Source of the DNA: a virus | Lineage: Duplodnaviria > Caudoviricetes | Length of the DNA: 64,000 bases | Strand: one strand, 5' to 3' | IMG/VR virus record: IMGVR_UViG_3300033121_002338 | Span: 19,342 to 83,341 of that record | Shown here: piece after piece, positions 1-48,474 of the stretch | How the letters are laid out: the number at the start of each line of letters is the position of its first letter | How positions within the stretch are numbered: the stretch's first letter is position 1 | Made by a program: the position numbers and the translations under genes | The notes under the pieces: model-generated | Databases searched by the model: none | Told to the model about the DNA's origin: nothing | The model's input: only the letters and a program-made list of their open reading frames with translations

Positions 1-45
1 CGTGCAGATGGCGGAAACGAACGTAATCGATCTTAACCATAGGGG

Positions 46-662: not shown

Positions 663-751
663 GGCTCAATAGATCTTAATTGGCTGACTCAGACGATCTC
701 GCGTTTGTCTGCCCATTGCTTATCTCCAGTGACTTTTAGGATACCCAGTCA

Positions 752-760
752 CAAAAATAC
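752..760 (+). promoter_or_regulatory. Candidate late-promoter box CAAAAATAC
   Basis: CAAA(A/G)ATA(C/T) recurs upstream of several virion genes; 14 nt before ATG 775, with GGGAG RBS between. Confidence 0.4.
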
Positions 761-774
761 ATCAGGGAGATTTT

Positions 775-1413: not shown

Positions 1414-1669
1414 AGACCAGTGCAAGAATCTGGATTCCAGATTGGAACTAGTTAAGCATCAACTGTTTAACCAAATTGCTGGTGCTATCCAGGCCAAGAT
1501 CAAAGAGGACACTGGAATAGAGGTTGATTTGATCGGCAAGAATGAGGTTGGCGGCGAGATCAAGGCGACTCTGGTCGGGCAAACTGGTGACAGCGAGGCT
1601 GTCGATAAAGCTGATCGGACCATGCAGCAGCTGCGGAACCCGGCCAATTTTACTAATTTAGTCAGGTGA
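1403..1669 (+). CDS. Hypothetical protein
   Basis: ORF between neck and tail-terminator genes; GTG start at 1403 inferred. Confidence 0.55.
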   Translation: MRAKDQCKNLDSRLELVKHQLFNQIAGAIQAKIKEDTGIEVDLIGKNEVGGEIKATLVGQTGDSEAVDKADRTMQQLRNPANFTNLVR

Positions 1670-1673
1670 GTCT

Positions 1674-2546
1674 TTGCCACTCCATGATTTCAACTCTGAT
1701 GTCGGAATGCCGGCCGCCGACCTTCGCGCTTCTCTCCCCCACGGAGCCGCTGAGGTCCCGGGTGTCCGGCAGGTCTCTCATGTACAGGGCGGTCGGACCG
1801 ATATTGCCGGCTCCGACTTTATGTCGTACCCCTATAACCTCGAAGAGTTCCTGCAACCTGGTTTTCGGGCGCTAGATGATGCTATGAAACAATATTGGTC
1901 AGGTATCCGGGTACCGACCAAGGACTCATATAGGTTTATGCGGGTTAAGATTGCCGGTGGTGATAAATCGTTGTTGGTTTGGGCCGATGAGCTCAAGGAC
2001 GGGCGGGCTCGGCTGCCGCTGGCGGCGATCGACAGGACTTCGGCAGAGTTCAACCCAGAGAAGTACAGTCCGGCTTACCATGCCATGACGGCCCGGTACG
2101 TCAGCACCAGAGGTAATCTGGCCGCCAAAGTCTACCGTCCTGTGCCGTTCCTGGTTGACTACACTTTGACGATCTGGGCTGAGCATAAACGTGATGCCGA
2201 GTATATCATCTACCAGGTTTTGACTCGTTTTAATTCGTTGGCCGAATTTCGGATGAGCGATGGGAAGATTGAAGGGAATGTCCAGCTTCGTTTGGGCGGC
2301 TCCCAGGATACCAGCGATAAGGAAACAGGGCACGATCAACATGCAAATATTAGATACGAGGTAACTACTACTGCTGAGGCGTGGCTGCCCCTGCCGGAGA
2401 AGATCGTCCCGACCGTCTTGGGTCGTGTGACCCTGCTCAAGGAACGGCTTGGTGATATTCTCTTGGCCGGTAAAGGTTCCAGCAGCTTGACTAACCAGTG
2501 GGTGGAACCAGTTCAGAACGCAACCCAGGCTCAACAAACCGTCTAA
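1674..2546 (+). CDS. Tail terminator/completion protein (T4 gp15-like)
   Basis: RLPLAAIDR...PVPFLVDYTLTIWA...QVLTRFN motifs; synteny; true start may be a later ATG. Confidence 0.7.
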   Translation: MPLHDFNSDVGMPAADLRASLPHGAAEVPGVRQVSHVQGGRTDIAGSDFMSYPYNLEEFLQPGFRALDDAMKQYWSGIRVPTKDSYRFMRVKIAGGDKSLLVWADELKDGRARLPLAAIDRTSAEFNPEKYSPAYHAMTARYVSTRGNLAAKVYRPVPFLVDYTLTIWAEHKRDAEYIIYQVLTRFNSLAEFRMSDGKIEGNVQLRLGGSQDTSDKETGHDQHANIRYEVTTTAEAWLPLPEKIVPTVLGRVTLLKERLGDILLAGKGSSSLTNQWVEPVQNATQAQQTV

Positions 2547-2797
2547 TGGAGATTGTGGTGGCTAAAGCTAAGAAAAAGTCTGCGATGGTGCGACTTTACA
2601 ATTGCTCTAAGCAGATGATCCCGCTCCAGGTCAGAGCCCCGGGTTCCGATTTCTTCTCGAACGAGCAGCAAGTTCGTTTGAACCCCGGCCAGGACGTGAT
2701 GCTACCGAAATCCTACCTCCGCGAAGACCAGATCGAGAACCTGCGGAAGCGGCGGATGGTCCAGGTCAACTACGACAGTGAAGCGGCGGCCGAGTAA
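2546..2797 (+). CDS. Small hypothetical protein preceding the sheath
   Basis: TAATG overlap with the upstream gene; 83 aa. Confidence 0.6.
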   Translation: MEIVVAKAKKKSAMVRLYNCSKQMIPLQVRAPGSDFFSNEQQVRLNPGQDVMLPKSYLREDQIENLRKRRMVQVNYDSEAAAE

Positions 2798-3234
2798 ACC
2801 GGCTTGACGTGGCCTAATCAGAACAAGAAGAAATGAGCTTGTTGATTTCCTGCCCCGAGTCCCAGAATTTCCTGTAACCGTGATTGAATAGGTTCTGGGC
2901 CTCGGTTGATTTCGGGTCGAACGACGACAGGAAATTAACCAATTTGTGTTTCTGGCTTGTCTTGTACAGCTCAACGAAACCCAACTTCTTATGGCCGGCT
3001 TGCGGCATTCGAAGCACGACCACGGGTCGGCCGTGCCTTTCCTGAACGCCAGTGATTCTTAAGGCTTATCTTGGTCGGCTGCTTGTAGGTGTCACATTTG
3101 GCCATTAGTGTAATGGCTACTCCTTTCGCAAAGATATCTGGACAATTGATGACCTGGGGTCAGCCAGAATGGTGTCTTTGCGAGATGCCACAGTAAACTC
3201 CGGCAAAGATGAATTACCTGAGAGGTAAATACGC

Positions 3235-6081: not shown

Positions 6082-6086
6082 TAACC

Positions 6087-6124
6087 AAAAGGCCACAGAT
6101 TCCATAAGGGTCTGTGGCCTTTTT
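6087..6124 (+). terminator. Intrinsic (possibly bidirectional) terminator after the sheath
   Basis: AAAAGGCCACAGA-11 nt-TCTGTGGCCTTTT, 13-bp stem with A and T tracts. Confidence 0.85.
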
Positions 6125-6161
6125 CGTGTATTTCGATTAATGCACTGTGGATGTCAATGAG

Positions 6162-7784
6162 ATGATCAACTGGCAGAAGACGGAAATCAAGTATGGAATT
6201 ACCAACAATTCAGCCCGTTCCAAGTCCAAAGTCGTCGTCGAATGCGACGAATGTGGGGTTGAAGCCGATAGGATATACTGTTCGGTTAAACAGACACTTA
6301 AACGCACTGCTGGTCGGCTCTTCTGTCATAACTGTGCTACTAAAAGCCAACAATTTAAGGACGGTTGTGCGACACGGGCCGCCAAGAAATGGCAGGATCA
6401 GGAATATATTGCCAATAATTTGAGCGCAGTCCGATCCCCTGAGTATCGTGAACAGAAGCGGTCAGAATCGGCTGAACGTTGGTCGGATGCTGACTTTCGG
6501 GCCAAGATGACCACACACGAGATGATTGAGGCCAGACGCAGAAATAGCAGCATCGCGGCTAAGAACCTCTGGGCGCAACCTGAATACCGAGCTAAGTTGA
6601 TTGGTAAGCTACGCGAGAGGATGATCGAGACCTGGCAGCGTCAGGACTATCGTACCCACATGTCGGCCATTCAATCTGGCAACACTAAATCGTTGTGGGA
6701 AGATGGCGCTTTCGCTGACTGTTTCGACGACGCCTTTAAGGAGAAAATGGCGGCCATCAACAGGGAGATTCTTTCTCGACCCGAAGTGCTGGAGAAGTTG
6801 ACTGAGGCTGGCAGAGCGAATTGGGAAAACGATGAGTATCGCCAGGCGGTGATCGCAGGAAATAAGGCGAGATGGCAGAATGAAGAACACCGCGAGCTTA
6901 TGGCACAGATTAGATCCGGTCAACCACGTCAAAGCACACAACAGCAGTTATTGTATCAATTTCTGGGGGATCTAGGTGTCACTTATTACCGTGAAGGCCA
7001 AGAGACTAAGATTGGCTACTTTGTCTTCGACTGCCTGGTGGAACATCAGGGACTGAAGATCCTGATCGAGTGTCAGGGTGATTACTGGCATTCCTTACCA
7101 GGTTCAGCCAGCCGTGACAAAGCCAAGTTCACCTACGTTGACCGATACTTCCCAGAGTACGAGGTCATGTACATCTGGGAACATGAATTCTATACCAAGG
7201 ACCGGGTCCTAGACAGATTGAAATTGAGACTCGGCTTGTCGGTCGAAACTGTTGATTTCCGTTTCCAAGACATCCAAATTAAAGAGGTCTCGGCGGGTGA
7301 GGTGAAGTCGTTCCTGGACGCCTACCACTACATCGGTAAAGGTAGAGGTGGTAAGACCTATGGGGCTTACCTGGGAGATCTGCTGGTAGCCTGTGTCGTG
7401 TTCAGCCCGCCACTCCGGCAGAACATGGGGGCGTTCGGCGAATTCAGAGAGTTATCTAGATGCTGTATTCACCCGTCTTACCACCGCAAGAACTTCGCTA
7501 GCTGGTTTATCAGCCGGTCGTTGCGGCTGGTCGGCGGGAAGGTGGTGGCCTATGCGGATAGTACGGTTGGTCACACTGGGGCCATCTATAAGGCCTCGAA
7601 CTTCAAACTTCATCATGAGGTGGACCCGGATTATTGGTATGTGGATGGCGATGGTTTTGTGATGCATAAGCGGACGCTATATGGCCGTGCGGTCAAGATG
7701 GGGATGGCCGAGTCGGAGTTTGTTGCCGCTTACGGGTACGTCAAAAAGTTCGGCGGCCCTAAGAGATGTTTTGTGTATGGCTGA
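6162..7784 (+). CDS. Zn-finger/helical-repeat/Vsr-like endonuclease/Mom-like GNAT fusion, copy 1
   Basis: CxxC..CxxC; W-x3-(E/D)-(Y/F)-R repeats; FDC...IECQGDYWH; YHY, ELSR, YAD..GHTGAIYKASNF. Start at ATG 6162 chosen by similarity to the MIDW starts of copies 4 and 5. Confidence 0.85.
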   Translation: MINWQKTEIKYGITNNSARSKSKVVVECDECGVEADRIYCSVKQTLKRTAGRLFCHNCATKSQQFKDGCATRAAKKWQDQEYIANNLSAVRSPEYREQKRSESAERWSDADFRAKMTTHEMIEARRRNSSIAAKNLWAQPEYRAKLIGKLRERMIETWQRQDYRTHMSAIQSGNTKSLWEDGAFADCFDDAFKEKMAAINREILSRPEVLEKLTEAGRANWENDEYRQAVIAGNKARWQNEEHRELMAQIRSGQPRQSTQQQLLYQFLGDLGVTYYREGQETKIGYFVFDCLVEHQGLKILIECQGDYWHSLPGSASRDKAKFTYVDRYFPEYEVMYIWEHEFYTKDRVLDRLKLRLGLSVETVDFRFQDIQIKEVSAGEVKSFLDAYHYIGKGRGGKTYGAYLGDLLVACVVFSPPLRQNMGAFGEFRELSRCCIHPSYHRKNFASWFISRSLRLVGGKVVAYADSTVGHTGAIYKASNFKLHHEVDPDYWYVDGDGFVMHKRTLYGRAVKMGMAESEFVAAYGYVKKFGGPKRCFVYG

Positions 7785-7807
7785 TGATCGTCCACGGGTG
7801 TGTCGCA

Positions 7808-8251
7808 ATGGGTTTCTGTGAATTGGTCGCTCATGGCTTGGTTGCTAGTCTCGAAGCCGCGGTCCCCTGTGTGGTGGAGGCTCCGTCTGTTGAGCCAAGC
7901 GACTGGGCCAATGTTCACATTCAAGGGCTGGGCAATGAATCAGCCACAATCACAGTTTGGAATGGACGATTGTTACTGGCTAAATTCAATAATTCGCTTC
8001 GTTATCGGCAGATACGGCGCGACTGTGCCTATAATTGTTGCGGTCGGATTTTGAATAAGCCGCTGCACGATCCGGAGGCGATCGATTGGATTATTGCTCA
8101 GGTGATTCGTGTGATTTTGAAAGACCATTCTTGTTTATATAATTTCGCGACTGATGCTGCCAGGCGGCAGTTGCTGTGGGAAACATGGCGCTTGGACCAG
8201 AGAAATTTTGCGTTTGGTCGTCCGCACTACTTGCATGAGGGGTTGTTTTGA
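7808..8251 (+). CDS. Hypothetical protein, DP-motif family
   Basis: PLHDPEAIDWIIAQV; directly downstream of copy 1; start uncertain. Confidence 0.55.
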   Translation: MGFCELVAHGLVASLEAAVPCVVEAPSVEPSDWANVHIQGLGNESATITVWNGRLLLAKFNNSLRYRQIRRDCAYNCCGRILNKPLHDPEAIDWIIAQVIRVILKDHSCLYNFATDAARRQLLWETWRLDQRNFAFGRPHYLHEGLF

Positions 8252-9018
8252 ACTGGATTGATCAGATCGGGCAGCATGAATGCAAGGTCTTCTCCCAGAA
8301 CGGCGAGGACGGCGTCATCGAATTTATCTTCGCCAACATTGGCACCACCAATAAACGCTACGTCGAATTCGGTTGCGACGGCGGCCACGAGTGTCAGGCC
8401 CGTTACCTTACTGAACAGTGTGGTTGGTCTGGGTTGCTGATGGATGGGGGTGATTGGGGGCCGTCAGTCACGAAAGAATTTATTACCGCCGAGAACGTCA
8501 ACGACATCTTTATTAAGTATGGTGTTCCGAGAGAACCCGACCTGCTCTCCATCGACATCGACGGCAACGACTACTGGGTTCGTAAGGCCCTGATGGATTA
8601 CCGGCCGCGCGTTATCGTTCATGACTACAATGGTCTGTTCAAGCCGCCCGTTTCCATCACGATTGCCTATGATCCACAGTTCGTGTGGTCCGGTAACGAC
8701 TACGCTACCGCGAGTTTGGCGGCTTTTGTTAAGCTCAACAAGACTATGGGCTATACCTTAGTCTATTGCGAAAAAAATGGGGTGAATGCTTTCTTTATCC
8801 GCGACGACCTAATCAAGGGGCTCAAAATCCCAGCTATGGAGGACCTGTGGCGACCGCTGTTGATCCCGCCACGTGACCCGGTCCATGAGTGGCGAAAGCG
8901 TTGGGTTGAGGTGGTGCTAGAGGGAGGGGTTCTGGTTGAACGGGTTTTGGAGCCCACTCCCTGGTTGGTCGATCATCCGTTTAGAAAGTCTATCCCTGCT
9001 GATCGTCTATTGCGATAA
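8248..9018 (+). CDS. FkbM-like SAM-dependent methyltransferase
   Basis: SQNGEDGVI, YVEFG, GWSGLLMDG, FITAENVN, DLLSIDIDGNDYWV motifs. Confidence 0.8.
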   Translation: MNWIDQIGQHECKVFSQNGEDGVIEFIFANIGTTNKRYVEFGCDGGHECQARYLTEQCGWSGLLMDGGDWGPSVTKEFITAENVNDIFIKYGVPREPDLLSIDIDGNDYWVRKALMDYRPRVIVHDYNGLFKPPVSITIAYDPQFVWSGNDYATASLAAFVKLNKTMGYTLVYCEKNGVNAFFIRDDLIKGLKIPAMEDLWRPLLIPPRDPVHEWRKRWVEVVLEGGVLVERVLEPTPWLVDHPFRKSIPADRLLR

Positions 9019-9055
9019 TTGGGGTGCAATCCAAATTTGGATTGCACCCCAATTA
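9016..9055. repeat. Perfect 40-bp palindrome between convergent genes
   Basis: TAATTGGGGTGCAATCCAAA/TTTGGATTGCACCCCAATTA, no spacer. Confidence 0.9.
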
Positions 9056-9057
9056 GT

Positions 9058-10083
9058 TTATTCCTTGAGGGTGATGCCGAAGGCGGCGTAGTCGTCGCCG
9101 AAGGTGGTGGCGGTGATCTCTTCGCTTGGTGTGTTCACGCCGATTTTGTAAACGACCCAGAAGCCGATGTCGGTGGAGTCGATGGAGCCGTCGTAGCGGT
9201 TGATGGCTGTGACATAGCCGTCCGCCGGTACCAGGTGGTCGTCGAAGTTGTTCAGTTGCATGAAGGCGCCGACCGCCATGTCGCCGTTGGTGTTTACCGT
9301 GATTGCGCCGGTCGTCCATGTTGTGGGGCCGGCACCTTCGCTGGTTGAATTGCTGTTGTAGCCGTCGTGTGGTGGGTTGGAGTTAGCACCGAAACATTCC
9401 AGGATGCCCAGGACAGCCGACGAGTCGCCGGAAGTGGTGACAGTGATCGTCCCTTCGTTGCCGCTACTACCCACTCTCTTATACCACAGTGACAGGCTTC
9501 CTTCGTGGACATTGAGGAAACGGCGGTAACTGCCCACTTGGGTGAAGGCGCCGTCTGCATTGCTTACGGAAACAGTGATATTTGAGTAGGAACTCTTGGT
9601 GGCCACGAATGCCAGGAGCAGCGCCCCTTCGGTCGGTTCCGCGATGCTGTGGTTGATGATACCAGGGCCGAACGACTTGCCATAACTGCTGGCCTGTCCA
9701 GGCTCCACCAGTGGGTCCTCGTCTGAGGGCGGTGGCGGGGGCGGCGGTGGTGGCGGTGGCGGTGGCGGGGGCGGTGGTGGGGGCGGTGGTGGGGGCGGTG
9801 GCGCCGGCGGGGGCGGTGGCGCCGGCGGGGGCGGGGGTGGTGCTATGACTTCTGATTCGGTGAAGGTTGGGCCGCTGTCGCGGTTATAGCCGAGTAAGTG
9901 CAAGCGGTGAGTTTCTAGGAACTGTTGGATGGTTCGGTAGATGCTGCTGGTCTTGTCTATGGTGTCGGCCCACATTCGCACCTGGTTCATGTTGACCCGG
10001 TGCTTGAATGTGATTTCCGCGGCTGTGTGGCCGTTTTCGATGTCAGCTATGATGGCTGCCAGGATACTCAGTTGGTTGGCCAT
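9058..10083 (-). CDS. Polyproline-linker protein with C-terminal beta-rich domain (possible virion surface protein)
   Basis: 80-aa N-domain, 36 Pro in 38 codons, then a Ser/Thr/Gly-rich beta domain. Confidence 0.75.
   Translation of the reverse strand: MANQLSILAAIIADIENGHTAAEITFKHRVNMNQVRMWADTIDKTSSIYRTIQQFLETHRLHLLGYNRDSGPTFTESEVIAPPPPPPAPPPPPAPPPPPPPPPPPPPPPPPPPPPPPPPSDEDPLVEPGQASSYGKSFGPGIINHSIAEPTEGALLLAFVATKSSYSNITVSVSNADGAFTQVGSYRRFLNVHEGSLSLWYKRVGSSGNEGTITVTTSGDSSAVLGILECFGANSNPPHDGYNSNSTSEGAGPTTWTTGAITVNTNGDMAVGAFMQLNNFDDHLVPADGYVTAINRYDGSIDSTDIGFWVVYKIGVNTPSEEITATTFGDDYAAFGITLKE
9727..9840 (-). repeat. Polyproline tract P6-A-P5-A-P25
   Basis: Counted from the sequence: 38 codons, 36 CCN. 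Confidence 0.95.
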
Positions 10084-10096
10084 AGCTCTGTGCCAT

Positions 10097-10122
10097 TGGT
10101 GGTGGTGGTGGTGGTGGTGGTG
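10097..10122 (-). repeat. (CCA)8 microsatellite in the leader of the polyproline gene
   Basis: + strand (TGG)8TG, ending about 14 nt before the ATG at 10083. Confidence 0.9.
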
Positions 10123-10159
10123 CTAACTTGTAACTTTGCACAGAGAACAGAAAGCAATG

Positions 10160-10525
10160 TTAGGATTGCTGTTGGAGGGTTGCTCTGGAGTCTAGGTAAG
10201 CGTGTAGTTCGAAGACGAAGTTGCGCGGGATGTGCATATAGTTGTCGTTTACGATCGCGACCACCGCTTGTCGCACACTGTCGAAACAATTTGGATCGGC
10301 ATAGTCTATGGTGCTGTGAGCGATTCTTCTGCCATCGTAGTAGATTATGATAGTAGGCAAGTGGATATCATATCTCCACTCGTCGAAATAGATACTGATG
10401 CTGAGTGTCGTTCTGCCGAGCGGAACGATAATTCCGTATTTCTCGATTGTGTATGCGAGGTTTTCCTTGTCTAATTCTTCACCCACTCCATGGGCGAGAG
10501 CCGCAATGAGTTGTTCTTCGCTCAT
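10160..10525 (-). CDS. Hypothetical protein, DP-motif family
   Basis: IDYADPNCFDSVRQAV; starts 6 nt after the stop of copy 2. Confidence 0.65.
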   Translation of the reverse strand: MSEEQLIAALAHGVGEELDKENLAYTIEKYGIIVPLGRTTLSISIYFDEWRYDIHLPTIIIYYDGRRIAHSTIDYADPNCFDSVRQAVVAIVNDNYMHIPRNFVFELHAYLDSRATLQQQS

Positions 10526-10531
10526 CTTCGC

Positions 10532-12067
10532 TCATTTTCCATGGTAGAGGAAACACAGTTTTGGTCCTCCCCATTTCTTGATGTACCCATACTCGGCCGC
10601 GAATTCTGACTCGGTGAGTTTTAGATTCACGGCCCGGTTGTATAGGGTTTTCTTGTGCATAACGTAGCCATCCTTGTCCGCATACCAATAATCGGACTGG
10701 GTGGTGTGGTGTAGCTTGAAATTGGAGGCCTTATAGACCGTCCCCAGATGTCCGACGGTGGTGTCGGCGAAAGCGACGACGACTTGATGGTCCTTTACTA
10801 ATCTAGCTAGCCACCAACTGAGCAGATTCTTTTTGTGGTAATTCGGATGGACGCACAGTCTGGCTAATTCGACGGCTCCGTTTGGAAATTGGTGCGCCAT
10901 ATTCTGCCGCGGCAACGGCCCGAAACGGCTAACCGCGATTAGTGTATCGCCGAGCCATAGACCATAATCGGAGCCCCCACGCGAAGCTCCCAGATAGTGA
11001 TACTTGGTTAGGAATTCGTTTGATAGATTGCGGTCTATCCGGGCGTGTTGCAACTGGCCGAATTGATAATCAACCGTGTCCGGCTTGATGCCTAACTTGG
11101 TCTTCAGACGATCCAGAACGCGATCTTTGGCTGAGAATTCGTGTTCCCAGATATACATGATCTCGTATTCCGGGAAGTAGCGGTTTATGTAGGTGAATTT
11201 CGCCCGATCATTCCTTATGGTTTTGGGTAGTGAATGCCAATAATCGCCCTGGCATTCGATCAGCAACGATCGCCCGTGTGCAGTAGCAATTTTACAATCG
11301 AAGACATAAAATCCGACGGTTGTGTCTGGGCCTTCTCGAACGTAATTGACTCCTAGGTTGTCGAGATATTCGTAAAGTGATACTTGTAGACTGCTGATGC
11401 GTGGTTGCTTGCTCCTCCCAACCGCCCATTTTGCCCTCTGGGCTTCGTCTGCCCACAACTCAGTCATTGTCCGCGATATGGCAATCTTAATCCGTTCTCT
11501 GTAGTCGGCATCTTGCCAGCGCCGGTTATTCTCGACACCGACTGCAACTCGTCGTTCTGCAGTGAATGAGTCTTTGATGGACTCGGACACCAATTTCTGG
11601 TATTCTTCTCTGTCCCATAATTCAGATGACAGTTTGGCCCGATTTTCCCTGGCCTGTGGGTCAGCCCAGAATTTCAAGAGTCGTTCGACAATCTCTTTGC
11701 GGTTATCCAAACACCAATCACGTAGCTTGCCGACCATCGCTTCACGGTATGCGCCGCCAGCCCATCTCTCTCGCATTATGATTGAATGGGCCGCTCTGCG
11801 TTCTGGGGTCCATGCCTTTGTGATCCCACTGCTTACAGCAGCGGCGTACTCTTGGTCTTGCCACAATCGGCGTGAGTCGGCTGAGAGATCTCTGGTGGAG
11901 GAACGGTCGTAGCTTCCCCTCGCTCCGGCTTCTTTTCTGCTGCATCCCCCACATTTGAAGATGCCGTGGTTCCGTTTACGGTTGGCGTTGGCACTGTAGG
12001 AACGAATCTTGATTGGAGTTTGACAGAGGTCACAGCCGATGATGACGAATGGCCCGTTGTGTGACAT
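10532..12067 (-). CDS. Zn-finger/helical-repeat/Vsr-like endonuclease/Mom-like GNAT fusion, copy 2
   Basis: CDLC..CGGC; W..EY repeats; FDC..IECQGDYWH; YHY, ELAR, FAD..GHLGTVYKASNF. Confidence 0.85.
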   Translation of the reverse strand: MSHNGPFVIIGCDLCQTPIKIRSYSANANRKRNHGIFKCGGCSRKEAGARGSYDRSSTRDLSADSRRLWQDQEYAAAVSSGITKAWTPERRAAHSIIMRERWAGGAYREAMVGKLRDWCLDNRKEIVERLLKFWADPQARENRAKLSSELWDREEYQKLVSESIKDSFTAERRVAVGVENNRRWQDADYRERIKIAISRTMTELWADEAQRAKWAVGRSKQPRISSLQVSLYEYLDNLGVNYVREGPDTTVGFYVFDCKIATAHGRSLLIECQGDYWHSLPKTIRNDRAKFTYINRYFPEYEIMYIWEHEFSAKDRVLDRLKTKLGIKPDTVDYQFGQLQHARIDRNLSNEFLTKYHYLGASRGGSDYGLWLGDTLIAVSRFGPLPRQNMAHQFPNGAVELARLCVHPNYHKKNLLSWWLARLVKDHQVVVAFADTTVGHLGTVYKASNFKLHHTTQSDYWYADKDGYVMHKKTLYNRAVNLKLTESEFAAEYGYIKKWGGPKLCFLYHGK

Positions 12068-12132
12068 CTCTGGCTGCCCGTCAAGGAAAAACTATTGTAG
12101 GATTTTTACCCCAATACATGGCTGGAGGCTGT

Positions 12133-12207
12133 ATGCCAGGGTTCAACATCATGCCGTATGGCGGCGGCTATTCAGCCCAAGGCCCGTCAAATACGGCTGA
12201 GACGAGG
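12133..12207 (+). pseudogene. Orphan 5' stub of the tail-tube gene (25 codons)
   Basis: Encodes MPGFNIMPYGGGYSAQGPSNTAETR, identical to the N-terminus at 13747; GGAGG RBS at 12124-12128; then runs into unrelated sequence. Confidence 0.85.
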
Positions 12208-12293
12208 GGATCTTCCAAATTGATGTTGAAGAAAGCGAAGTTGTGCGGCTTGTCCGCCCAGTTGAGCAGCACTTGTGTGCTTCCGTTATTCAT
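12208..12293 (-). pseudogene. Truncated start of a small gene downstream of copy 3
   Basis: ATG 12293 reads MNNGSTQVLLNWADKPHNFAFFNINLEDP, then joins the reverse complement of the tube stub. Confidence 0.4.
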
Positions 12294-12311
12294 ACCCCGG
12301 TATAATTTCTT

Positions 12312-13691
12312 CTAGCTCTTCTGGTGTAGGAAACACAGTTTTGGTCCTCCCCATTTCTTGATGTACCCATATTTGTCAGCGAATTCGGCCTCGGTGAGTT
12401 TCAGGTTTACAGCACGGTTATAGAGGGTCTTCTTGTGCATCACGTAGCCATCTTTATCAACATACCAATAGTCAGACTGGGTGGTGTGGTGTAGTTTGAA
12501 ATTAGCTGCCTTGTAGACAGTGCCCAGATGCCCCACTGTGGTGTCGGCGAAGGCCACAATGCTCCTATAGCCAGACATCTTGATCGCACGCGAAACCAGC
12601 CAACTTGCGAAATTATGCTTGTGGTAGGAAGGATGGATGCATAATCTGGATAACTCGATCGCGTCGGCTGGGAGTGCTTGATGGTTCTGCCGAATTAGTC
12701 GGCTAAAGAGCACGCACCCAATCACTTGTTGTTGGTGTCTGGCTACAATCGCTCGGCCACCACGTGAACCACCAATATAGTGGTATTGATCCAGGAATGA
12801 TCTCACTTCCTTGCTGTCAGCCTCAGCAACTTCGATCTCCTTGAACGAGAAGGTGACAGTTGGGATAGCGATGCCGAGTTTTAGTTTCAGCCTATCGAGG
12901 ACACGGTCTTTGGTGCCGAATTCGTGCTCCCAGATATACATGATTTCGTGGTCTGGGAAGTATCGATTGATGTAGGTGAATTTGGCCCGGTCCCTAGCTG
13001 CAGCGCCTGGTAATGAATGCCAATAATTACCTTGGCATTCGATGAGGAGTTTTCGGTCGTTAGGGCGTTTGACTAGGCAGTCGAATACATAATGGCCGAT
13101 CGCAGTTGCTGGACCTTCCCGTTCGTAACTTACTCCCAGATCGCCTAGGAATGAGTATAACGCTATCTGCAGGCCTGAAATGCTCGGTTGGTTGGCTCTG
13201 ATTACGGCCATCCGCATTCGGTATTCATCATCGGCAAAGCGTTTTCTGGCTGCCTCGCCAACAGCTAATCTATAATTCGGGTCTTCGAGGTACCGCTGGT
13301 GAAGACCAGCGGAGATTCTAGCACGCGCCTCTAGACTGAGCAAGGCCTCAGTTACTCCGGCTGAGACTCTTTTCTTGTACCCATCGTCTTTCCATAATTC
13401 GCTGGTCCTGGTCGATTGTGCTGCTCTATATTCATCGGTCGTGTTGGCGGCCGTAGATGTGGCAGTGATCTTAGCTCTGAATTCTGGCCGGCTCCACAAT
13501 GCCTTGCTCTGTGCCGATCTCTTCTCTGGGGTGTGGCTAAATTTGCCAGCCTTGCCCGCCTTGATGGTGCAGCAGTGGTGGCAGGTGTAGACTCCATTGC
13601 GTTTTACGTTCGCGTTGTAAGTGTCGCCTCTGACTTCCCCCGACCATCCGCAAGCACAATTCGCCGGCTTCTTCTGTTTGGATGGTCTCAC
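12312..13691 (-). CDS. Zn-finger/helical-repeat/Vsr-like endonuclease/Mom-like GNAT fusion, copy 3
   Basis: GGAG-5 nt-GTG start at 13691; CACG..CHHC; FDC..IECQGNYWH; YHY, ELSR, FAD..GHLGTVYKAANF. Confidence 0.85.
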   Translation of the reverse strand: MRPSKQKKPANCACGWSGEVRGDTYNANVKRNGVYTCHHCCTIKAGKAGKFSHTPEKRSAQSKALWSRPEFRAKITATSTAANTTDEYRAAQSTRTSELWKDDGYKKRVSAGVTEALLSLEARARISAGLHQRYLEDPNYRLAVGEAARKRFADDEYRMRMAVIRANQPSISGLQIALYSFLGDLGVSYEREGPATAIGHYVFDCLVKRPNDRKLLIECQGNYWHSLPGAAARDRAKFTYINRYFPDHEIMYIWEHEFGTKDRVLDRLKLKLGIAIPTVTFSFKEIEVAEADSKEVRSFLDQYHYIGGSRGGRAIVARHQQQVIGCVLFSRLIRQNHQALPADAIELSRLCIHPSYHKHNFASWLVSRAIKMSGYRSIVAFADTTVGHLGTVYKAANFKLHHTTQSDYWYVDKDGYVMHKKTLYNRAVNLKLTEAEFADKYGYIKKWGGPKLCFLHQKS

Positions 13692-13746
13692 GGTGGCTCC
13701 GAGAAAATCTAATATAGTAACTTTCCAGGTCGAGCAGAGGGCGAAA

Positions 13747-14331
13747 ATGCCAGGCTTTAATATCATGCCCTACGGCGGGGGATACTCGGCCCAAGGCCCT
13801 TCCAATACGGCTGAAACGCGCAGGAAGCATCGCTGGGTTTTCGAATCGATCGGGCGAGGTACTGGGGCCTTCTCCCAGTCAGAGTTGCTGTTCCTGCAGA
13901 GCGCCTCGCGCCCCAGCTTTAAGTTCGAGGAAGCGGACCTGCACCACAACCAAGAGGTGGCCCGGTTTGCTGGTAAGCAAGACTGGGACCCGGTCACGCT
14001 GACCTGGTATGATGTCCAGCAAGACCCCGACGTGTCCCGCGGGATTTATCACTGGATCGAGACTGTGGTTAACATGTTCTCGATTAAGGTGGCTCACCCC
14101 CGTCTTTACAAGCGGACCGCCAGCCTGTTGATGATTGACGGTGCTGGTCAGACCTCTGAATCGTGGACCATGCTGGGGACCTGGCCCTCGAACTGTAACT
14201 GGCAGGAACTGGATTATGCTTCGAATGATATTCTTACTATCGAAGCGACCATGCGTTATGACCGGGCGGTTCGGAACTGCGTCGGTGCTCCGGCGCCGCA
14301 ACCGATCGCGCCAAACTGCCCACAAATCTAA
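13747..14331 (+). CDS. Tail tube protein 1 (gp19-like; probably the major tube)
   Basis: RKHRWVF, SASRPSF, FAGKQDWDPVTLTWYD, WTMLGTWPS, LDYASNDILTIEATMRYDRA. Confidence 0.85.
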   Translation: MPGFNIMPYGGGYSAQGPSNTAETRRKHRWVFESIGRGTGAFSQSELLFLQSASRPSFKFEEADLHHNQEVARFAGKQDWDPVTLTWYDVQQDPDVSRGIYHWIETVVNMFSIKVAHPRLYKRTASLLMIDGAGQTSESWTMLGTWPSNCNWQELDYASNDILTIEATMRYDRAVRNCVGAPAPQPIAPNCPQI

Positions 14332-14348
14332 GGGTTTGTAGGGTAAAT

Positions 14349-14380
14349 CTAAGAGGGAGGCCAAATGGCCTCCCTCTTAG
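14349..14380 (+). terminator. Hairpin between tube 1 and tube 2
   Basis: CTAAGAGGGAGGCC-AAAT-GGCCTCCCTCTTAG followed by CGTATTTATT. Confidence 0.7.
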
Positions 14381-14403
14381 CGTATTTATTGCTGGAGAAA
14401 TGA

Positions 14404-14976
14404 TTGCCAGGCTTTAATATTCAATTTGCGAGCGACTGCGGCGTGGCCCCCGAGAGCAACGGGCCGGCCAATACCGTGGAGACGGCACGCCGCCACCGCT
14501 ATTCATTAGAGGTCCTGGAGCCACTCGGCAGACAAGATAACGGCATTCTGCTGTTCCTGGAGCGTTGTACCCGTCCCGCCGTTGAATTTGATAAGATCGT
14601 TATCCATTCCGGCCAGGATGAGATTGCACGTCCCGGTAAGACCCACTGGAAAGAAATCGAATTCAGCTTTTATGAAGCTTTATCTGGTCAGGACAATGGT
14701 TCGTTGGAGAATCAATGTGCGAGCTTGATTTATGAGTGGTGGTCGAGCACCATGTTGGATGTTTCAACTAGTACCTTCCGGGCTCCTGGTGATTTTCTCA
14801 AAAACGCACAACTACAAATGCTGGATGGTGATGGCTCTCCTGTCTGGTCTTATCACATTTATGATTGTTGGCCGCTGAAGGTGTCGCCGTCGGAGTTGGC
14901 TTACTCGGATTCTAATATTGCCACTATTTCGGTTACACTTTGTTATTCGCGCGCTCGCGAAATAAACGAGAGGTAA
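14404..14976 (+). CDS. Tail tube-like protein 2
   Basis: Paralog of tube 1 (MPGFNI, RPGKTHWKEIEFSFYE, CWPLKVSPSELAYSDS); TTG start with GGAG. Confidence 0.75.
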   Translation: MPGFNIQFASDCGVAPESNGPANTVETARRHRYSLEVLEPLGRQDNGILLFLERCTRPAVEFDKIVIHSGQDEIARPGKTHWKEIEFSFYEALSGQDNGSLENQCASLIYEWWSSTMLDVSTSTFRAPGDFLKNAQLQMLDGDGSPVWSYHIYDCWPLKVSPSELAYSDSNIATISVTLCYSRAREINER

Positions 14977-14991
14977 TCAGAGGAGACGGCT

Positions 14992-15570
14992 ATGCCGGGC
15001 TTTGTTGTGCCGGGGATCGGCGGCGGCTTCTCGCGGGCGCCTAGCAGCCGGCGCGAATACTACTATAATTATACCTGGGAGGTTGAGAATTTGTTCCAGG
15101 GTCAGAGCCCGGATGGTTGGAGTGATCCGAATAGTCCGTTGATTGCGTTGCGGGACGCGACCTTGCCTACTTTTACGGTTAACAAGGAAGTCCATGCCGG
15201 GGCGAGCGTTGAGTACAAGTATGCGAAGAGTGTGACTTGGGACGACATCAAGATAACCTGGTACGATTCAGACGGCCTCCTGGAAGTTATGAGGAAGTGG
15301 CGTGGGAACATCTGGACTCAATCGCATGGCCTTGCTGATGCCGATCATTATAAGAGACGTTCTGAGCTTTCTTATTATCTGCCTACCGGTAAGAAACGGA
15401 ATTCCTGGTTATTGAGAAATTCGTGGCCGAGTCAGATTCGTCATGGGGAATTGACGTATACTTCTAGCGATGTTAAATTGGTTGAGGTGACGGTGACATA
15501 TGACTGGGCTATTGAACGTCCTTCGTCTGAGGACACCTCTTCGGTTGGCACGTTAACTGGCGTGATCTAG
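14992..15570 (+). CDS. Tail tube-like protein 3
   Basis: MPGF start, KYAKSVTWDDIKITWYD, SWPSQIRHGELTYTSSD, VTVTYDWA. Confidence 0.75.
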   Translation: MPGFVVPGIGGGFSRAPSSRREYYYNYTWEVENLFQGQSPDGWSDPNSPLIALRDATLPTFTVNKEVHAGASVEYKYAKSVTWDDIKITWYDSDGLLEVMRKWRGNIWTQSHGLADADHYKRRSELSYYLPTGKKRNSWLLRNSWPSQIRHGELTYTSSDVKLVEVTVTYDWAIERPSSEDTSSVGTLTGVI

Positions 15571-15638
15571 GGATTCGCCGCCCGGCGGTCTCGCACAGTA
15601 GTTAGCAAATAGAGGCCAATCTCTATTGTGGGATCACC

Positions 15639-16640
15639 ATGCAAGAAATCGATCTGAATTCAAATGCTCCTATTAAGCCGGAGCCGGCAGCGGCTACCGG
15701 CGCCGAGACCAACCAAATCCGCGAAGCAATCTCAAACCTCAAGTCGTTGGTCAAGCCTGGTCAGACTAACGAAGAGTTTGTAGACAGCCTAATCAACGCT
15801 CCAGAATCCGCACTTCTACAATGGGAGAATTGCGAATTGCCGTCCCGCGGCCTCTATTACGGTTGGTCGGACGGGATTGTTAAGGTTAAGCCGATGGGTC
15901 AGATGGCTGACAAGATTCTCGCCACCGAGCGGTTGGCCCAGAGCGGCCAATCAATCGACTTCCTGTTCCGCGAGCACTGCCAATTCCCGGCTGGTTTCGA
16001 TCCGGTTAACTTGCTGGTCGGGGACCGGGTTTTTCTGCTCTACTTCTTGCGTGGGATCACCCACGGTAATGTCTATGAGTTTATGTTCACCTGTCCTAAC
16101 AAGGACTGCAGTGATACTAGCTCCCATCGATACGATTTGAATGAGTTGGCCAAGACGATTGTTTGGGCTGACGATCGTCTGGGGGCGGAGCCTTTTAAGG
16201 TGGTCCTGCCCTACTTGTCCAAGGCCTCGGGGCGCGAAGTCTGGGTTGGGGTTCGTTTCTTGCGTGCCGCCGACGCTAACGAGATGTTGGCCCGGCAGCG
16301 AGCCAAAAACAAGAATTCGCAGTCTGGGGCGGTCCGGACCCGCAGCCTCTCCTCGTTGCGTGGCGGCGGAGCCGGCCAGGTTCGGCAGGAACTGGACGAA
16401 ACCATCACCCAGAATCTAGAGAAGATCATCGTTAGCATTATGGGGGTGGCGGATGTCTTCGCTATCCGCCAATTCATCCCGAAGATGCATGCTCAGGATA
16501 CCGCTGCGGTCCGGGAATGGTTGCGCGAGCACACTCCTGGTATTGACGCTACGGTCGAGATTACCTGTCCAAAGTGCGAACAAGTCTTTACGATGGAACT
16601 TCCCATCAAGGAGTCGTTTTTTCGCCCAGCGAAGTCATGA
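15639..16640 (+). CDS. Baseplate hub assembly/tail chaperone (gp26-like)
   Basis: ELPSRGLYY, LLVGDRVFLLYFLRGITHG, CPNKDC and CPKC pairs, C-terminal FFRP. Confidence 0.75.
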   Translation: MQEIDLNSNAPIKPEPAAATGAETNQIREAISNLKSLVKPGQTNEEFVDSLINAPESALLQWENCELPSRGLYYGWSDGIVKVKPMGQMADKILATERLAQSGQSIDFLFREHCQFPAGFDPVNLLVGDRVFLLYFLRGITHGNVYEFMFTCPNKDCSDTSSHRYDLNELAKTIVWADDRLGAEPFKVVLPYLSKASGREVWVGVRFLRAADANEMLARQRAKNKNSQSGAVRTRSLSSLRGGGAGQVRQELDETITQNLEKIIVSIMGVADVFAIRQFIPKMHAQDTAAVREWLREHTPGIDATVEITCPKCEQVFTMELPIKESFFRPAKS

Positions 16641-16662
16641 TGAATATGAGCGGAGTTGGGAA

Positions 16663-16857
16663 TTGATTCAGGAGGAACAGTACCAACTCAAGACTCATGG
16701 CAATCTGACTTTATTCGAACAATCCCAGATGACCGCCGAGGAGCGAGCCTGGTGGATTAGAAGGATCAATCGGGACCGCCAGGAGCAGCAGGAACGCGAG
16801 CGGAACTCTGGGTCGGCGATGCCGAGAATGCCATCTATGCCACGCATCCGCCGATGA
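16663..16857 (+). CDS. gp51-like chaperone partner (own TTG start or +1 frameshift extension of the upstream ORF)
   Basis: EEQYQLKTHGNLTLFEQSQMTAEERAWWIRRI; frame open across the TTTTTTC at 16617-16623. Confidence 0.6.
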   Translation: MIQEEQYQLKTHGNLTLFEQSQMTAEERAWWIRRINRDRQEQQERERNSGSAMPRMPSMPRIRR

Positions 16858-16878
16858 GCCCGGGGTAATCCCGGGCTC
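16856..16878 (+). terminator. Candidate terminator hairpin
   Basis: GAGCCCGGG-GTAAT-CCCGGGCTC followed by TGTTGTT. Confidence 0.5.
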
Positions 16879-16916
16879 TGTTGTTAACAAAAATATAATA
16901 ACCACAGGAACACCAT

Positions 16917-17780
16917 ATGAGCTGCCCCGCTTTAGTTGGAGCCAGGCCCAGAATTAGTGCGCGGCGGGGCCAGGTCGCCGACCTGAATGTGAATTTCTAC
17001 AATGCCGGAGTTCTAGCCGATCCTTTTGCCATTTATAAAGTTGAGATTTATAAGACTCAGATCTTACCCCACAATTTGGTCGCCACAATTCCGGTGGTGG
17101 CTCCTACCGATGACCTCTACCCGGCACCAGTCTGCCAGGAGACCGAGGCGACCCAAACCGGCGCCTGTGGCACGGAGCCTGATTCTGATGCCACCCCAAT
17201 TGTTGGCAAATACCATCTGCCGTACTTGGTGCCGAACGACGCTGTAGTACCGGATATTTATTTTGATCTCTGGTATTATTACCCAACCAATCCGGTCCAA
17301 GACGGCACTTCGCCGACCGCCGATGAGCTAGATGACGACCAGTCGTTGGCCCAATTGTTGACCTGTTGCCACCGCTTTTGGGTGTATCCGGAAGAGTGGT
17401 TCTGCGGCGATGGCCTGCAGACCGTCAGGTTTGACTTCGAGCCGCTCGATCAACGTTTTCATTCGCCGGAACGCCGGCCGCTTGAGCTTGGGATCGTGCC
17501 GTTGCCGCTGTATGATTTCAATTACAATTTAGTGATGCCTCTAATTCCGTTTTTGAAACCGACGATTTCGATCGAGACTCAGAATTGCGAATTGTTGGTT
17601 GATAAGGAGGAGTGCCGGATTGGTCTCCGGCAGGGTTCTTATCGTTCCCATCCCTGGGTTATCCAGTATGAGCTGGACACGACTCGTTTCTTGAAGGGGA
17701 CGTATCGTTATTTTGTGACTGTCATGCTGCCCGATGGCTCGACGCGGGTGAGTCGTAAGTTTATTATCACCGTCTCCTGA
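16917..17780 (+). CDS. Hypothetical protein (probably virion, beta-rich)
   Basis: 287 aa; AGGA RBS; CAAAAATAT box at 16888. Confidence 0.65.
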   Translation: MSCPALVGARPRISARRGQVADLNVNFYNAGVLADPFAIYKVEIYKTQILPHNLVATIPVVAPTDDLYPAPVCQETEATQTGACGTEPDSDATPIVGKYHLPYLVPNDAVVPDIYFDLWYYYPTNPVQDGTSPTADELDDDQSLAQLLTCCHRFWVYPEEWFCGDGLQTVRFDFEPLDQRFHSPERRPLELGIVPLPLYDFNYNLVMPLIPFLKPTISIETQNCELLVDKEECRIGLRQGSYRSHPWVIQYELDTTRFLKGTYRYFVTVMLPDGSTRVSRKFIITVS

Positions 17781-17792
17781 GTGGGGTGAGCC

Positions 17793-18212
17793 ATGCCGTC
17801 GATGCCATTGGTCCGTCTACGCCAATTGTGTGACTCACTTGATCGGGAGGAGAGTTTGGCTGACGGTTTCTTCCAGCGTTCGCCAGACCTGTTGGCTGTA
17901 ATTGACCATGATGGATCATTTATCAAAACTAGCCGGTCCTGGAATAAATTACCTGGGTGGGATTGTAACGATAATCTGTTTGATTTTGTTCGCCCGGACT
18001 GTCGTGTCGCTTTCCGGGACATGTTAGCCAGCCTTTCGGATCACGATGTGAATAGCTTCGATTGTGCAGTTGGCACGGTCGATGATGGATATGTTGATAT
18101 CAACTTCTCTGCCACCAGGTGGCGGGACGGTCGATCGAATTTGATCGGCCGGATTGGTAATGAGTTGAAGGACGCCCATGCCGAACACCACAAACAAGCC
18201 GACCGGGGGTGA
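17793..18212 (+). CDS. Stand-alone PAS-domain protein
   Basis: FFQRSPDLLAVIDHDGSF...LFDFVRPD...DDGYVDINFSATRW, typical PAS pattern. Confidence 0.7.
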   Translation: MPSMPLVRLRQLCDSLDREESLADGFFQRSPDLLAVIDHDGSFIKTSRSWNKLPGWDCNDNLFDFVRPDCRVAFRDMLASLSDHDVNSFDCAVGTVDDGYVDINFSATRWRDGRSNLIGRIGNELKDAHAEHHKQADRG

Positions 18213-18603
18213 CGCAAACGGTTGGACCGAGTATCGTAGACTGGTTCTCGCCGAACTGGAGCGGCTCAGCCGTGAACTCCAACAAATCCAATCGCAGATT
18301 GCAAGCTTGCAGCTGGTCTTGAGCCAATCTATCAACGACAACAAGCACACGACCAGCGAGAAAATCAGAGAGGCCACTAACAAGTTGGATGACACCTACG
18401 AAAAACGATGCAAGGAGACTGGGACCGAGACCGAGAAATCGTTAAAAGAACTGGAAAGGAAACTGGAGAAGGCCGACGAAACCATCGAAAAAGTGGCCAA
18501 GGACCTGCACGGCCTCAATTCCAAGGCCATGGCTCTTGGGGCTGCCGCCGGCTTCATCATGAGCCTGGTCGGGCTAATGGCTTCTATCTTCTTCAAGAAA
18601 TGA
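18178..18603 (+). CDS. Coiled-coil protein with C-terminal transmembrane helix (holin/XhlA-like architecture)
   Basis: Heptad-rich body; terminal AMALGAAAGFIMSLVGLMASIFFKK. Confidence 0.65.
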   Translation: MPNTTNKPTGGDANGWTEYRRLVLAELERLSRELQQIQSQIASLQLVLSQSINDNKHTTSEKIREATNKLDDTYEKRCKETGTETEKSLKELERKLEKADETIEKVAKDLHGLNSKAMALGAAAGFIMSLVGLMASIFFKK

Positions 18604-18613
18604 TCGATAGTAT

Positions 18614-19702
18614 TTGACAGCTATGGCTTACAGTCCCAATAAGGCCAGAGTCCACCTCCCGTCTCCCAAGATCAAGGCCTGGATCGAAAGACACTTCCCC
18701 GACTATCGTACCCGCCGTGAAGGCCAAGAATATCTGATTTGCAACCCCTTTAATGGGGACAGCAATTTCAAGATGAACATCAACCCAGACAAAATGGTCG
18801 TTCACGACTGGCGTGGCGATGACTGGGCCAAAATCAACCCACAGACCGGCAAACGAAAATGTTCGTTCATCGACTTTGTGATGCTCTACAAGTCGTTTAG
18901 CTTCGACCAAGCGGTCCGCGACATCCTCCAAACCACCGGACCCATCGCCCCGATGCTCCAACCAGCATCCCGGGAACCGGAGCAAGTATTTCAGATCGAA
19001 TTGCCCAAGGGCGCCAACAAGATCGCTGACGAATTAGACCACCCGGAAGTAAAAATCCTCCTCCACTGGCTCAAGGGGCGTGGGTATACTGTCGAGGAGA
19101 TCGCGGAAAATGAATTATATCACGCTGGCGTAGAGTGCATCTGGCCTTACTTCGAATTCGAAGAGATCGTTTATTGGCAGAGCCGGAATCGCCTTGACAA
19201 GATCTATCGTTTTCCGCCCACCAAGATCAAGGATAAGGACGGGAAAATCATAGGTAAAAGCGAGTATGGTAAGGGGGATTTCCTTTACGGATTTGACGAC
19301 TGCCTGGACTCGAAATACGCGATTATCACCGAATCGATCTTTGGCAAGCATACCCTCGGGGAGCACACGCTGGCGACCGGCGGGGCCGCAATCACCCCAA
19401 GCCAGATCAAGAAACTCAGTATCCTGGCGCCCGAGTCAGTTATCCTCTCGCCCGACAACGATCGAGCGGGGATCAAAAGTGTGCTGACCAACGGCCGCGA
19501 CCTGCTGAGAGCTGGGTTTAAGGTTTATTATAGCCTACCGCCAGCCACGCCCCATGGCGACGGACACATCAAAGATTGGAACGAAATGTTCGAGACTTTG
19601 AAAATGAGCAAAAAAGAGATTAGGTCCACCCACGACAAGTCGATCCGTGCCTTCGACGAGCGTGGGAAGGACGATCTGTTCCGCCGTCTCTACTCAAGCT
19701 AG
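18614..19702 (+). CDS. DNA primase (TOPRIM)
   Basis: YWQSR, FLYGFD, AIITES, LSPDNDRAG (DxD), KDWNEM; degenerate Zn-binding region. Confidence 0.8.
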   Translation: MTAMAYSPNKARVHLPSPKIKAWIERHFPDYRTRREGQEYLICNPFNGDSNFKMNINPDKMVVHDWRGDDWAKINPQTGKRKCSFIDFVMLYKSFSFDQAVRDILQTTGPIAPMLQPASREPEQVFQIELPKGANKIADELDHPEVKILLHWLKGRGYTVEEIAENELYHAGVECIWPYFEFEEIVYWQSRNRLDKIYRFPPTKIKDKDGKIIGKSEYGKGDFLYGFDDCLDSKYAIITESIFGKHTLGEHTLATGGAAITPSQIKKLSILAPESVILSPDNDRAGIKSVLTNGRDLLRAGFKVYYSLPPATPHGDGHIKDWNEMFETLKMSKKEIRSTHDKSIRAFDERGKDDLFRRLYSS

Positions 19703-48421: not shown

Positions 48422-48474
48422 TGGTCGTTAATACCCAACAACGCGAAGCGATCCGCCGCTGCCAGGTGGTGTGA
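48421..48474 (+). pseudogene. Orphan 5' stub of terL
   Basis: MVVNTQQREAIRRCQ-VV-stop versus TerL MKVTKEQREVIRRCQ (10/15 identical); TAATG-coupled to the upstream gene. Confidence 0.75.

Follow-up and report, generated by a model that had tools for sequence, protein, structure and literature searches.

In fungal mitochondria, free-standing endonuclease open reading frames (ORFs) are found beside partial duplicates of atp6, cob and the N-terminus of atp9 (PMC6279837, PMC7487136). In yeast, repeated homing of WHO elements at FBA1 replaces the end of the gene and builds clusters in which the newest element adjoins the full gene (Coughlan et al. 2020, PMC7282813). The 3' fragments found there have a common start position, which led to the mapped cleavage site, and both cleavage and the distinction between resistant and sensitive alleles were shown experimentally (PMC7282813). 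Here we describe a comparable layout in phage DNA. In a stretch of 64,000 nucleotides (hereafter the window), which comprises bases 19342–83341 of the 83,341-bp IMG/VR viral contig IMGVR_UViG_3300033121_002338, the first 25 codons of a tail-tube gene are present twice, and a gene encoding a putative nuclease fused to a Mom-like domain lies between the two copies. We consider it probable, if far from assured, that the duplicate is a scar left when a homing endonuclease drove the exchange of the tube-gene 5' end: a site-specific break at the boundary of codons 25 and 26 (codon 25|26) would have been repaired from a co-infecting relative.

Intron-less homing of the T4 type is represented by SegF at gene 56, SegG at gene 32 and the MobA-gene 60 cassette. 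A genome without the nuclease gene is cut in the neighbouring gene, at a distance of tens to hundreds of bases from the insertion point, and in mixed infections acquires the nuclease gene along with flanking markers. These classical cases are not known to leave a duplicated fragment of the target, both ends recombining homologously. Vsr-like (EDxHD) homing endonucleases, such as I-Bth0305I, known in connection with 'fractured genes' of environmental phages, are abundant in uncultured T4-like phages. The atp6 hybrid gene of Allomyces is a further case from fungal mitochondria.

The contig is a metagenome assembly with an estimated completeness of 23%; given its length, it is therefore a fragment of an uncultured huge phage. 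Related loci were retrieved with the tube protein as a query, 35 from IMG/VR and 28 from metagenomes, and are denoted below by their locus numbers; L046 comprises bases 1–19400 of the contig itself and lies largely upstream of the window. Tube starts were compared in an alignment of 18 alleles. A DNA search of the phage GenBank collection yielded no match.

Two diverged copies of the tube-gene start

Positions 12133–12207 and 13747–13821 of the window, both on the plus strand, encode the same 25 residues (MPGFNIMPYGGGYSAQGPSNTAETR). The two stretches, hereafter alleles A and B, differ at 14 of 75 bases, and all 14 differences, distributed over 13 codons, are synonymous, exactly as an earlier note on this DNA had described; 13 of them affect third codon positions and the remaining one is a first-position change in an AGG/CGC pair of arginine codons. 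The pair is recovered by tblastx within the contig (E = 4e-14) and constitutes family D5 in a repeat search, in which the modules repeat with a period of ~1.6–1.8 kb. The longest run of identical bases common to A and B is 11, and the 60-base flanks of the duplicate are unrelated, with 14/60 positions identical on each side.

Allele B is the beginning of the working tail-tube gene (13747–14331, plus strand; 194 aa). Its product matches the Pfam family PF06841 (gp19; E = 1e-7, 31.8 bits against a cut-off of 28.2), which identifies it as a T4 gp19-type tube protein, as well as the tail tube family PHROG 4542 (E = 3e-26), and is 93% identical to the corresponding protein of L011 and 91% to that of L072. 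The context of the gene is that of a tail module: the tail sheath gene lies upstream (3235–6081, plus strand; 948 aa; PHROG 23, E = 1e-83) and a T4 baseplate domain is encoded downstream, as are two further gp19-type tube paralogues. The pattern RKHRWVFE, encoded by codons 26–33 of allele B (13822–13845, plus strand), is matched once in the window; this stretch is the sole intact copy there.

Allele A, in turn, is an orphan. It is preceded by spacer A (12068–12132), a divergent intergenic region that can be aligned weakly with the pre-tube spacer of L011 and retains a GGAGG motif 4 nt 5' of the ATG. The homology to the tube gene stops exactly after codon 25, as had been noted earlier, and is followed by 35 unrelated codons and a stop at 12315, so that the open frame amounts to 60 codons in all. 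The 35 additional residues are the antisense of another gene fragment. Spacer B (13692–13746), the corresponding divergent intergenic region in front of allele B, is unrelated in sequence to spacer A.

The extent of the divergence between the two starts is close to that found between phage lineages. Over the 75 bases, A and B are identical at 61 positions, B and L011 at 59, and A and L011 at 56, which bears out the suggestion that A and B derive from related phages. The 14 silent changes are scattered evenly from base 9 to base 75, and B is 79% identical to L011 in the 5' part and in the rest of the gene alike (~79% over the remaining 510 bases, counted by eye), a comparison that does not discriminate with regard to the WHO-type expectation of a more diverged 5' part. 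A focal 'recoding' around a target site was rejected: being evenly spread and no denser than between lineages, the silent differences look like ordinary divergence and give no indication of selection for resistance, and the part of the earlier note that regarded B as a recoded, resistant allele is not supported. By our own estimate, about three quarters of random base changes are expected to alter the protein. That 14 of 14 are silent indicates that each start belonged to a working gene while its lineage diverged from the other, which would make the truncation of A a recent event relative to that divergence.

An intron or intein around the nuclease gene was considered and rejected, as the nuclease gene lies on the opposite strand, the downstream tube copy has its own start and ribosome-binding site (RBS), and an Rfam search of positions 10000–14600 returned neither an intron at E ≤ 1 nor any other RNA family. 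Sigma-70 promoters and terminators were sought at the junction and none were found.

A third tube fragment broken at the same codon boundary

Upstream of the window, the contig contains a fragment of yet another tube gene, consisting of codons 26–55 (fragment C; L046:6940–7052, with codon 26 at L046:6963). The gene in front of it encodes a 472-aa virion protein that is 88% identical to the product of the pre-tube gene of L011. Its stop codon is followed by 23 nt corresponding to the spacer of L011, which lead straight to codon 26 of the tube gene (CGG AAG CAC CGG...); a 1-nt deletion is found 13 nt past this junction, and codon 55 is followed by codons 1–5 of another nuclease gene. As counted by eye, fragment C is ~90% identical to L011 but ~72% to B, and therefore represents a third allele. 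Tube-gene pieces of three kinds (A, B and C), that is, of three lineages, are thus present in one contig. The possibility that allele A is the very piece missing from fragment C was rejected: both hold the first ~23 nt of the spacer and these differ, C being ~90% identical to L011 and the spacer of allele A far more diverged.

Fragment C lacks the RBS and codons 1–25, and allele A retains exactly codons 1–25, so that their junctions coincide within ~3 nt; according to our rough estimate, the probability of such a coincidence by chance is ~0.02. In the alignment of 18 alleles, the shared boundary, 75 nt into the gene, coincides with the beginning of RRKHRWVFE, where conservation within the N-terminal region is highest. 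Homing endonucleases typically target conserved coding sequence of this kind, and codons 26–33, which lie directly to the right of the breakpoint, are proposed as a candidate right half of the cut site. A second, independent tube fragment broken at the same codon boundary is what a site-specific cut would be expected to produce.

Fragment C is the last element of a 5.3-kb block (L046:1732–7052) that separates codon 5 from codon 6 of a nuclease-Mom gene; it begins with the 3'-terminal ~35 codons of a sheath gene, continues with five virion genes that resemble those of L011 (88%) and ends with tube codons 26–55. The block looks like a captured sheath-to-tube interval of an L011-like phage that has been placed elsewhere in the genome.

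Nuclease-Mom genes adjacent to the tube starts

The contig carries ~10 paralogues of a gene for a protein composed of a Zn-finger, a PD-(D/E)xK-like nuclease part and a Mom-like domain, two of which are associated with the tube starts. Copy 2 (10532–12067, minus strand; 511 aa) is intact and constitutes, with spacer A and allele A, the outer and presumably older module; copy 3 (12312–13691, minus strand; 459 aa) belongs to the inner module and adjoins the working tube gene. Both proteins match the Mom family PF25680 well above the curated threshold (66–68 bits versus 27.1; E = 1e-18 for copy 2 and 5e-18 for copy 3) and a PHROG family named 'homing endonuclease' (PHROG 3339, E = 5e-25 for copy 3). 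Both additionally display a weak restriction-endonuclease-like domain, which in copy 2 matches REase_MTES_1575. Comparison with the Mom structure 8bv8 gave a weak match (E = 0.06), and a search of PDB sequences with the nuclease part produced no significant match and hence no solved relative. A D...E-C-Q motif of the PD-(D/E)xK-like kind is visible in that part.

Copies 2 and 3 are 47% identical to each other. The N-terminus of copy 2 (MSHNGPF) has a counterpart in that of its orthologue in L052 (MGNNGPI). For copy 3, the alignment to the orthologue of a relative begins at residue 4 of the version that starts at GTG 13691, and a GGAG motif is located upstream of this codon; the gene therefore probably starts there and not at ATG 13766, in which case it would not overlap the tube gene. 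The 3' ends of the two genes (10542–10777 and 12322–12557) are 85% identical over 236 nt, including an exact run of 43 nt, and far more similar than the remainder of the two genes, a pattern suggestive of gene conversion or of strong constraint on the C-terminus; the pair of similar ends is also a possible substrate for deletion of the intervening 1.8 kb.

Between allele A and copy 3 lies a gene piece of ~29 codons that is cut off at the junction (12208–12293, minus strand), the 5' fragment of a gene whose product begins with MNNGSTQVLLNW... (MNNGST...). Possibly it is the beginning of a further MNNAQV...-type nuclease: over 28 aa it is 33% identical to the N-terminus of a paralogue in the contig, and a protein search with the 41-aa ORF retrieved no homologue. 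That these 29 codons are the N-terminus of copy 2, detached when spacer A and the tube start were inserted, was rejected, since the closest orthologue (L052:1269–2531) starts with MGNNGPI, in the manner of copy 2 itself. The order of elements given in the earlier note, in which copy 2 (minus strand) and tube start A are joined to the gene fragment and copy 3 (both minus strand) and then to the full tube gene B, was confirmed.

The sheath-tube slot in related phages

In order to place this arrangement, the interval between the sheath and tube genes was compared across the related loci. In L027 and L031 a spacer of 21–31 nt separates the sheath gene from the tube gene, and in L024 the gap measures 734 nt; a nuclease-Mom gene is missing from the slot in all three, and L024 has none in its 408 kb. 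L012 (354 kb, 98% complete) contains one nuclease-Mom gene between sheath and tube, on the minus strand and 70 nt from the tube start, and L052 contains two in front of the tube gene. In L072 the slot is taken by a different gene, likewise oriented, whose product is a Zn-ribbon protein with HNH-like motifs; a Pfam search gave no name to this protein. In L011, the slot is filled by five other virion genes and no nuclease gene. Homing genes are expected to be present sporadically at one conserved locus, and this is the distribution found here; sporadic occupation of one slot by more than one gene family is what usually marks a homing site.

The slot gene of L012 is a mosaic. Its product combines a Zn-finger and repeat-containing N-terminus like that of copy 3 with a nuclease-Mom body ~78% like that of copy 2; in the full-length comparison, copy 3 is 55% identical to it. 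Each tube start of the window is divergent from its own fusion gene, as had been proposed, and the same single module recurs in the relatives L012 and L052. These relationships identify copies 2 and 3 as two alleles of one locus, at which a nuclease gene diverges from the tube gene, now stacked in tandem; they differ mainly in the presumed DNA-binding part.

Two further observations concern these loci. Among the tube starts of L020, L021, L022, L028, L033 and L072, several have ATT where ATG aligns and others GTG, and the tube family may thus use non-ATG starts. Directly downstream of the tube-associated nuclease-Mom gene of L012 is an ORF of 141 aa (L012:6148–6573, minus strand) with HAE...PC-x-x-C motifs, judged by eye to be deaminase-like.

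Similar arrangements elsewhere in the contig

The layout of the tube locus is found again upstream of the window, where nuclease gene A and, beyond a spacer, 12 initial codons of a gene starting with MSAQPANTDIK are followed by nuclease gene B, a spacer and the full MSAQPANTDIK gene. The repeated unit, which runs from a nuclease start on the minus strand (MNNAQ) through a spacer of ~72 nt to the 12 codons on the plus strand, occurs at L046:7053–7175 and L046:9097–9205. The two units are ~90% identical, the left one being cut off and the right one running into the full gene.

Within the window, an orphan terL start of 15 codons (MVVNTQQREAIRRCQ, then a stop), a gene for a 272-aa Zn-ribbon protein and the working terL gene (MKVTKEQREVIRRCQ...) succeed one another at 48421–49340. 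Both terL starts have CGCTGCCAG in common at the junction. An HNH domain in the inserted 272-aa protein was not confirmed by a Pfam search.

Upstream of copy 2, an ORF of 341 aa (9058–10083, minus strand) encodes a run of ~50 prolines, seen as GGN repeats on the plus strand, and has no family match. It converges with the gene at 8248–9018 (plus strand), and a perfect palindrome of 20+20 nt located between the two (9016–9055) is probably a bidirectional terminator.

Origin of the duplicate

If the duplicate is the scar of an endonuclease-driven replacement of the tube-gene 5' end, the sheath-tube slot would be a landing site for free-standing nuclease genes that are divergent from the tube gene, and the event would have started in a genome already provided with one module, made up of copy 2, spacer A and a complete tube allele A. 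The tube gene would have been broken at codon 25|26, at the edge of the conserved RRKHRWVFE motif, most likely by a nuclease paralogue whose DNA-binding N-terminus differed; copy 3 and its now-truncated neighbour are the two candidates. Homologous recombination could then have repaired the right end from the tube gene that a co-infecting relative supplied, and copying in the leftward direction would have brought in codons 25–1, the spacer and copy 3, along with the 29 5'-terminal codons of the minus-strand gene beyond it (MNNGST...). Since the identity to the donor is 81% with no identical run longer than 11 bases, and since the spacers are unrelated and the nuclease genes differ, the left end is likely to have been joined illegitimately, leaving codons 1–25 of allele A as an orphan. 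Fragment C may represent the complementary outcome, in which a break at the same site was followed by chewing back of the left end by ~120 nt and rejoining, a loss that would be tolerable only in a redundant copy of the tube gene. Repeated events of this kind would stack nuclease genes and old gene starts outward from the working gene.

Several observations weigh against this interpretation. The nuclease activity of the nuclease-Mom family is predicted from sequence motifs, and the match to REase_MTES_1575 (25.6 bits) is below the curated Pfam cut-off of 38.2. No base difference that separates 'immune' from 'sensitive' alleles is visible around the breakpoint among the 18 alleles, and the shared boundary is represented by two instances, allele A and fragment C. 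The duplicated tube start is a singleton, found in this contig only among more than 60 related loci. In L012 and L052, relatives with one and two nuclease genes, respectively, no tube fragment accompanies the tube-adjacent nucleases, so the fragment is not an obligatory part of the element. The junction at 12207/12208 is that of a metagenome assembly. Allele A, the junction and the MNNGST... gene were all without a match in exact-pattern searches of IMG/VR and the JGI metagenomes: neither an uninterrupted allele A, which the earlier note had proposed to look for in relatives, nor a donor with the full MNNGST... gene, nor a second junction-bearing contig was found. The reading offered in the earlier note is partly supported.

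Other origins have to be considered on the same evidence. Ordinary illegitimate recombination of co-infecting mosaic phages, with random breakpoints and the nuclease genes as bystanders, would suit the non-homologous partner at the junction (the MNNGST... fragment), the mosaic nature of huge phages, the several other rearrangements of the contig and the uniqueness of the event among the related loci. Yet two independent junctions in two tube alleles fall on the same codon 25|26 boundary, each scar of this kind in the contig adjoins a nuclease gene, and in other lineages the slot holds two different kinds of nuclease gene, all of which makes an origin by chance breakage unlikely. It is quite improbable that the metagenome assembler concatenated two strains, one with copy 2 and allele A and the other with copy 3 and allele B. 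A contig assembled from a metagenome, estimated to be 23% complete and holding tube pieces of three lineages, might be suspected of such chimerism, as might one in which copies 2 and 3 have a 236-nt stretch in common at 85% identity, with its 43-nt exact run. Assemblers, however, join sequences at shared k-mers, of which there are none at 12207/12208, where the flanks are identical at 14/60 positions and the longest A-B run is 11 bases; the shared 43-mer is located elsewhere and would yield a different join, and repeats are likewise lacking at the contig's further junctions of this style, some of which restore reading frames cleanly.

An old tandem duplication within one genome, with the modules diverging in place, would agree with the module period of ~1.6–1.8 kb and with the frequency of tandem paralogues, but is hardly tenable: an unconstrained orphan should gather amino-acid changes, frameshifts and stops, whereas all 14 changes are silent and the frame is open (P ~2e-4, or 0.3^7, by our estimate, even if half of the changes arose on the orphan branch), and the spacers are unrelated although the coding part is conserved. 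The orphan start could, alternatively, have been kept for a function, as carrier of the copy 2 promoter or operator in the divergent spacer, as a 60-aa peptide or as a half-site decoy for the nuclease. The strong GGAGG, the open frame of 60 codons and the intactness of copy 2 are in keeping with such a role, but an intact frame is equally expected after a recent event, elements resembling a promoter or a terminator are not evident, the 35 residues that follow the tube homology are read antisense to another gene fragment, and nothing similar is conserved in relatives; we regard retention for function as very improbable.

Of the explanations weighed, replacement of the tube-gene 5' end by a homing endonuclease is the one that we favour. 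It is an event of a known kind and no new principle is revealed by it. The scar nominates a predicted target for the very abundant nuclease-Mom family, namely the sequence of the tube gene encoding ...E-T-R|R-K-H-R-W..., which would be cut at codon 25|26. It also points to one route by which nuclease genes may pile up in huge phages: a newcomer would invade a gene guarded by an older nuclease, and the old nuclease gene and gene start would be left behind. The mechanism known from the yeast WHO elements, the layout of which is also seen in fungal mitochondria, would thereby extend to the 5' ends of essential structural genes of phages.

A more speculative proposal, to which we give little credence at present, is that competing nuclease-Mom paralogues with differing DNA-binding N-termini overwrite codons 1–25 of the tube gene again and again, and that the fused Mom-like domain chemically marks the resident target, conferring immunity with no change in sequence. 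Were this so, nuclease-Mom genes would encode self-contained homing enzymes that cut others and protect self, self-marking by Mom would account for the coexistence of ~10 copies in 83 kb, and stacks of nuclease genes would be built in a phage as they are by WHO elements in yeast.

Comparison with known systems

With respect to T4-type intron-less homing, the likeness lies in the position of a nuclease gene between conserved genes. A duplicate has been left at the tube locus, in contrast to the T4 cases, and the T4 enzymes belong to the GIY-YIG and HNH families. The EDxHD enzymes resemble the putative nucleases described here in that a restriction-endonuclease-fold nuclease serves, or here would serve, as a phage homing enzyme; they differ in that the motif here is D...ECQG-x-YWH and in that a Mom-like GNAT domain is fused at the C-terminus.

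The fungal mitochondrial loci are closer in layout, since there too a free-standing nuclease gene is found between a full gene and a partial duplicate of one gene end, and neighbouring nuclease genes are duplicated. The enzymes in question are, however, of the GIY-YIG or LAGLIDADG type, the genomes are those of organelles, and the ends affected are mostly C-terminal.

The likeness to the WHO elements extends furthest. At FBA1 as at the tube locus, a gene for an endonuclease, here a putative one, lies beside an essential gene, one end of which has been, or here would have been, replaced by a diverged copy (~85% identical in yeast, 81% here); the displaced end persists as a fragment, and the fragments have a common boundary, which maps the cut site in yeast and is a candidate for it here; and divergent nuclease genes form tandem clusters with the newest at the full-length gene. 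The yeast enzymes, in contrast, are intein-derived LAGLIDADG-Zn-finger proteins of a eukaryote, whereas those of the phage are PD-(D/E)xK-like nucleases fused to a Mom-like domain, and it is the 3' end that is replaced in yeast, whereas in the phage it would be the 5' end, together with the RBS, and the nuclease gene is transcribed divergently. Phage relatives with a single nuclease gene, moreover, carry no fragment, which makes it probable that the orphan arose as a by-product of superinvasion and is not needed as a homology arm. Thus, the tube locus has the partial duplicate beside a nuclease gene, with the full gene intact, that characterizes elements replacing gene ends, but its nucleases have Mom and PD-(D/E)xK-like domains instead of those of the LAGLIDADG/intein or GIY-YIG/LAGLIDADG types. 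The tube scar is best regarded as an analogue, in mechanism, of the WHO elements and fungal mobile ORFs, and not as a member of their family.

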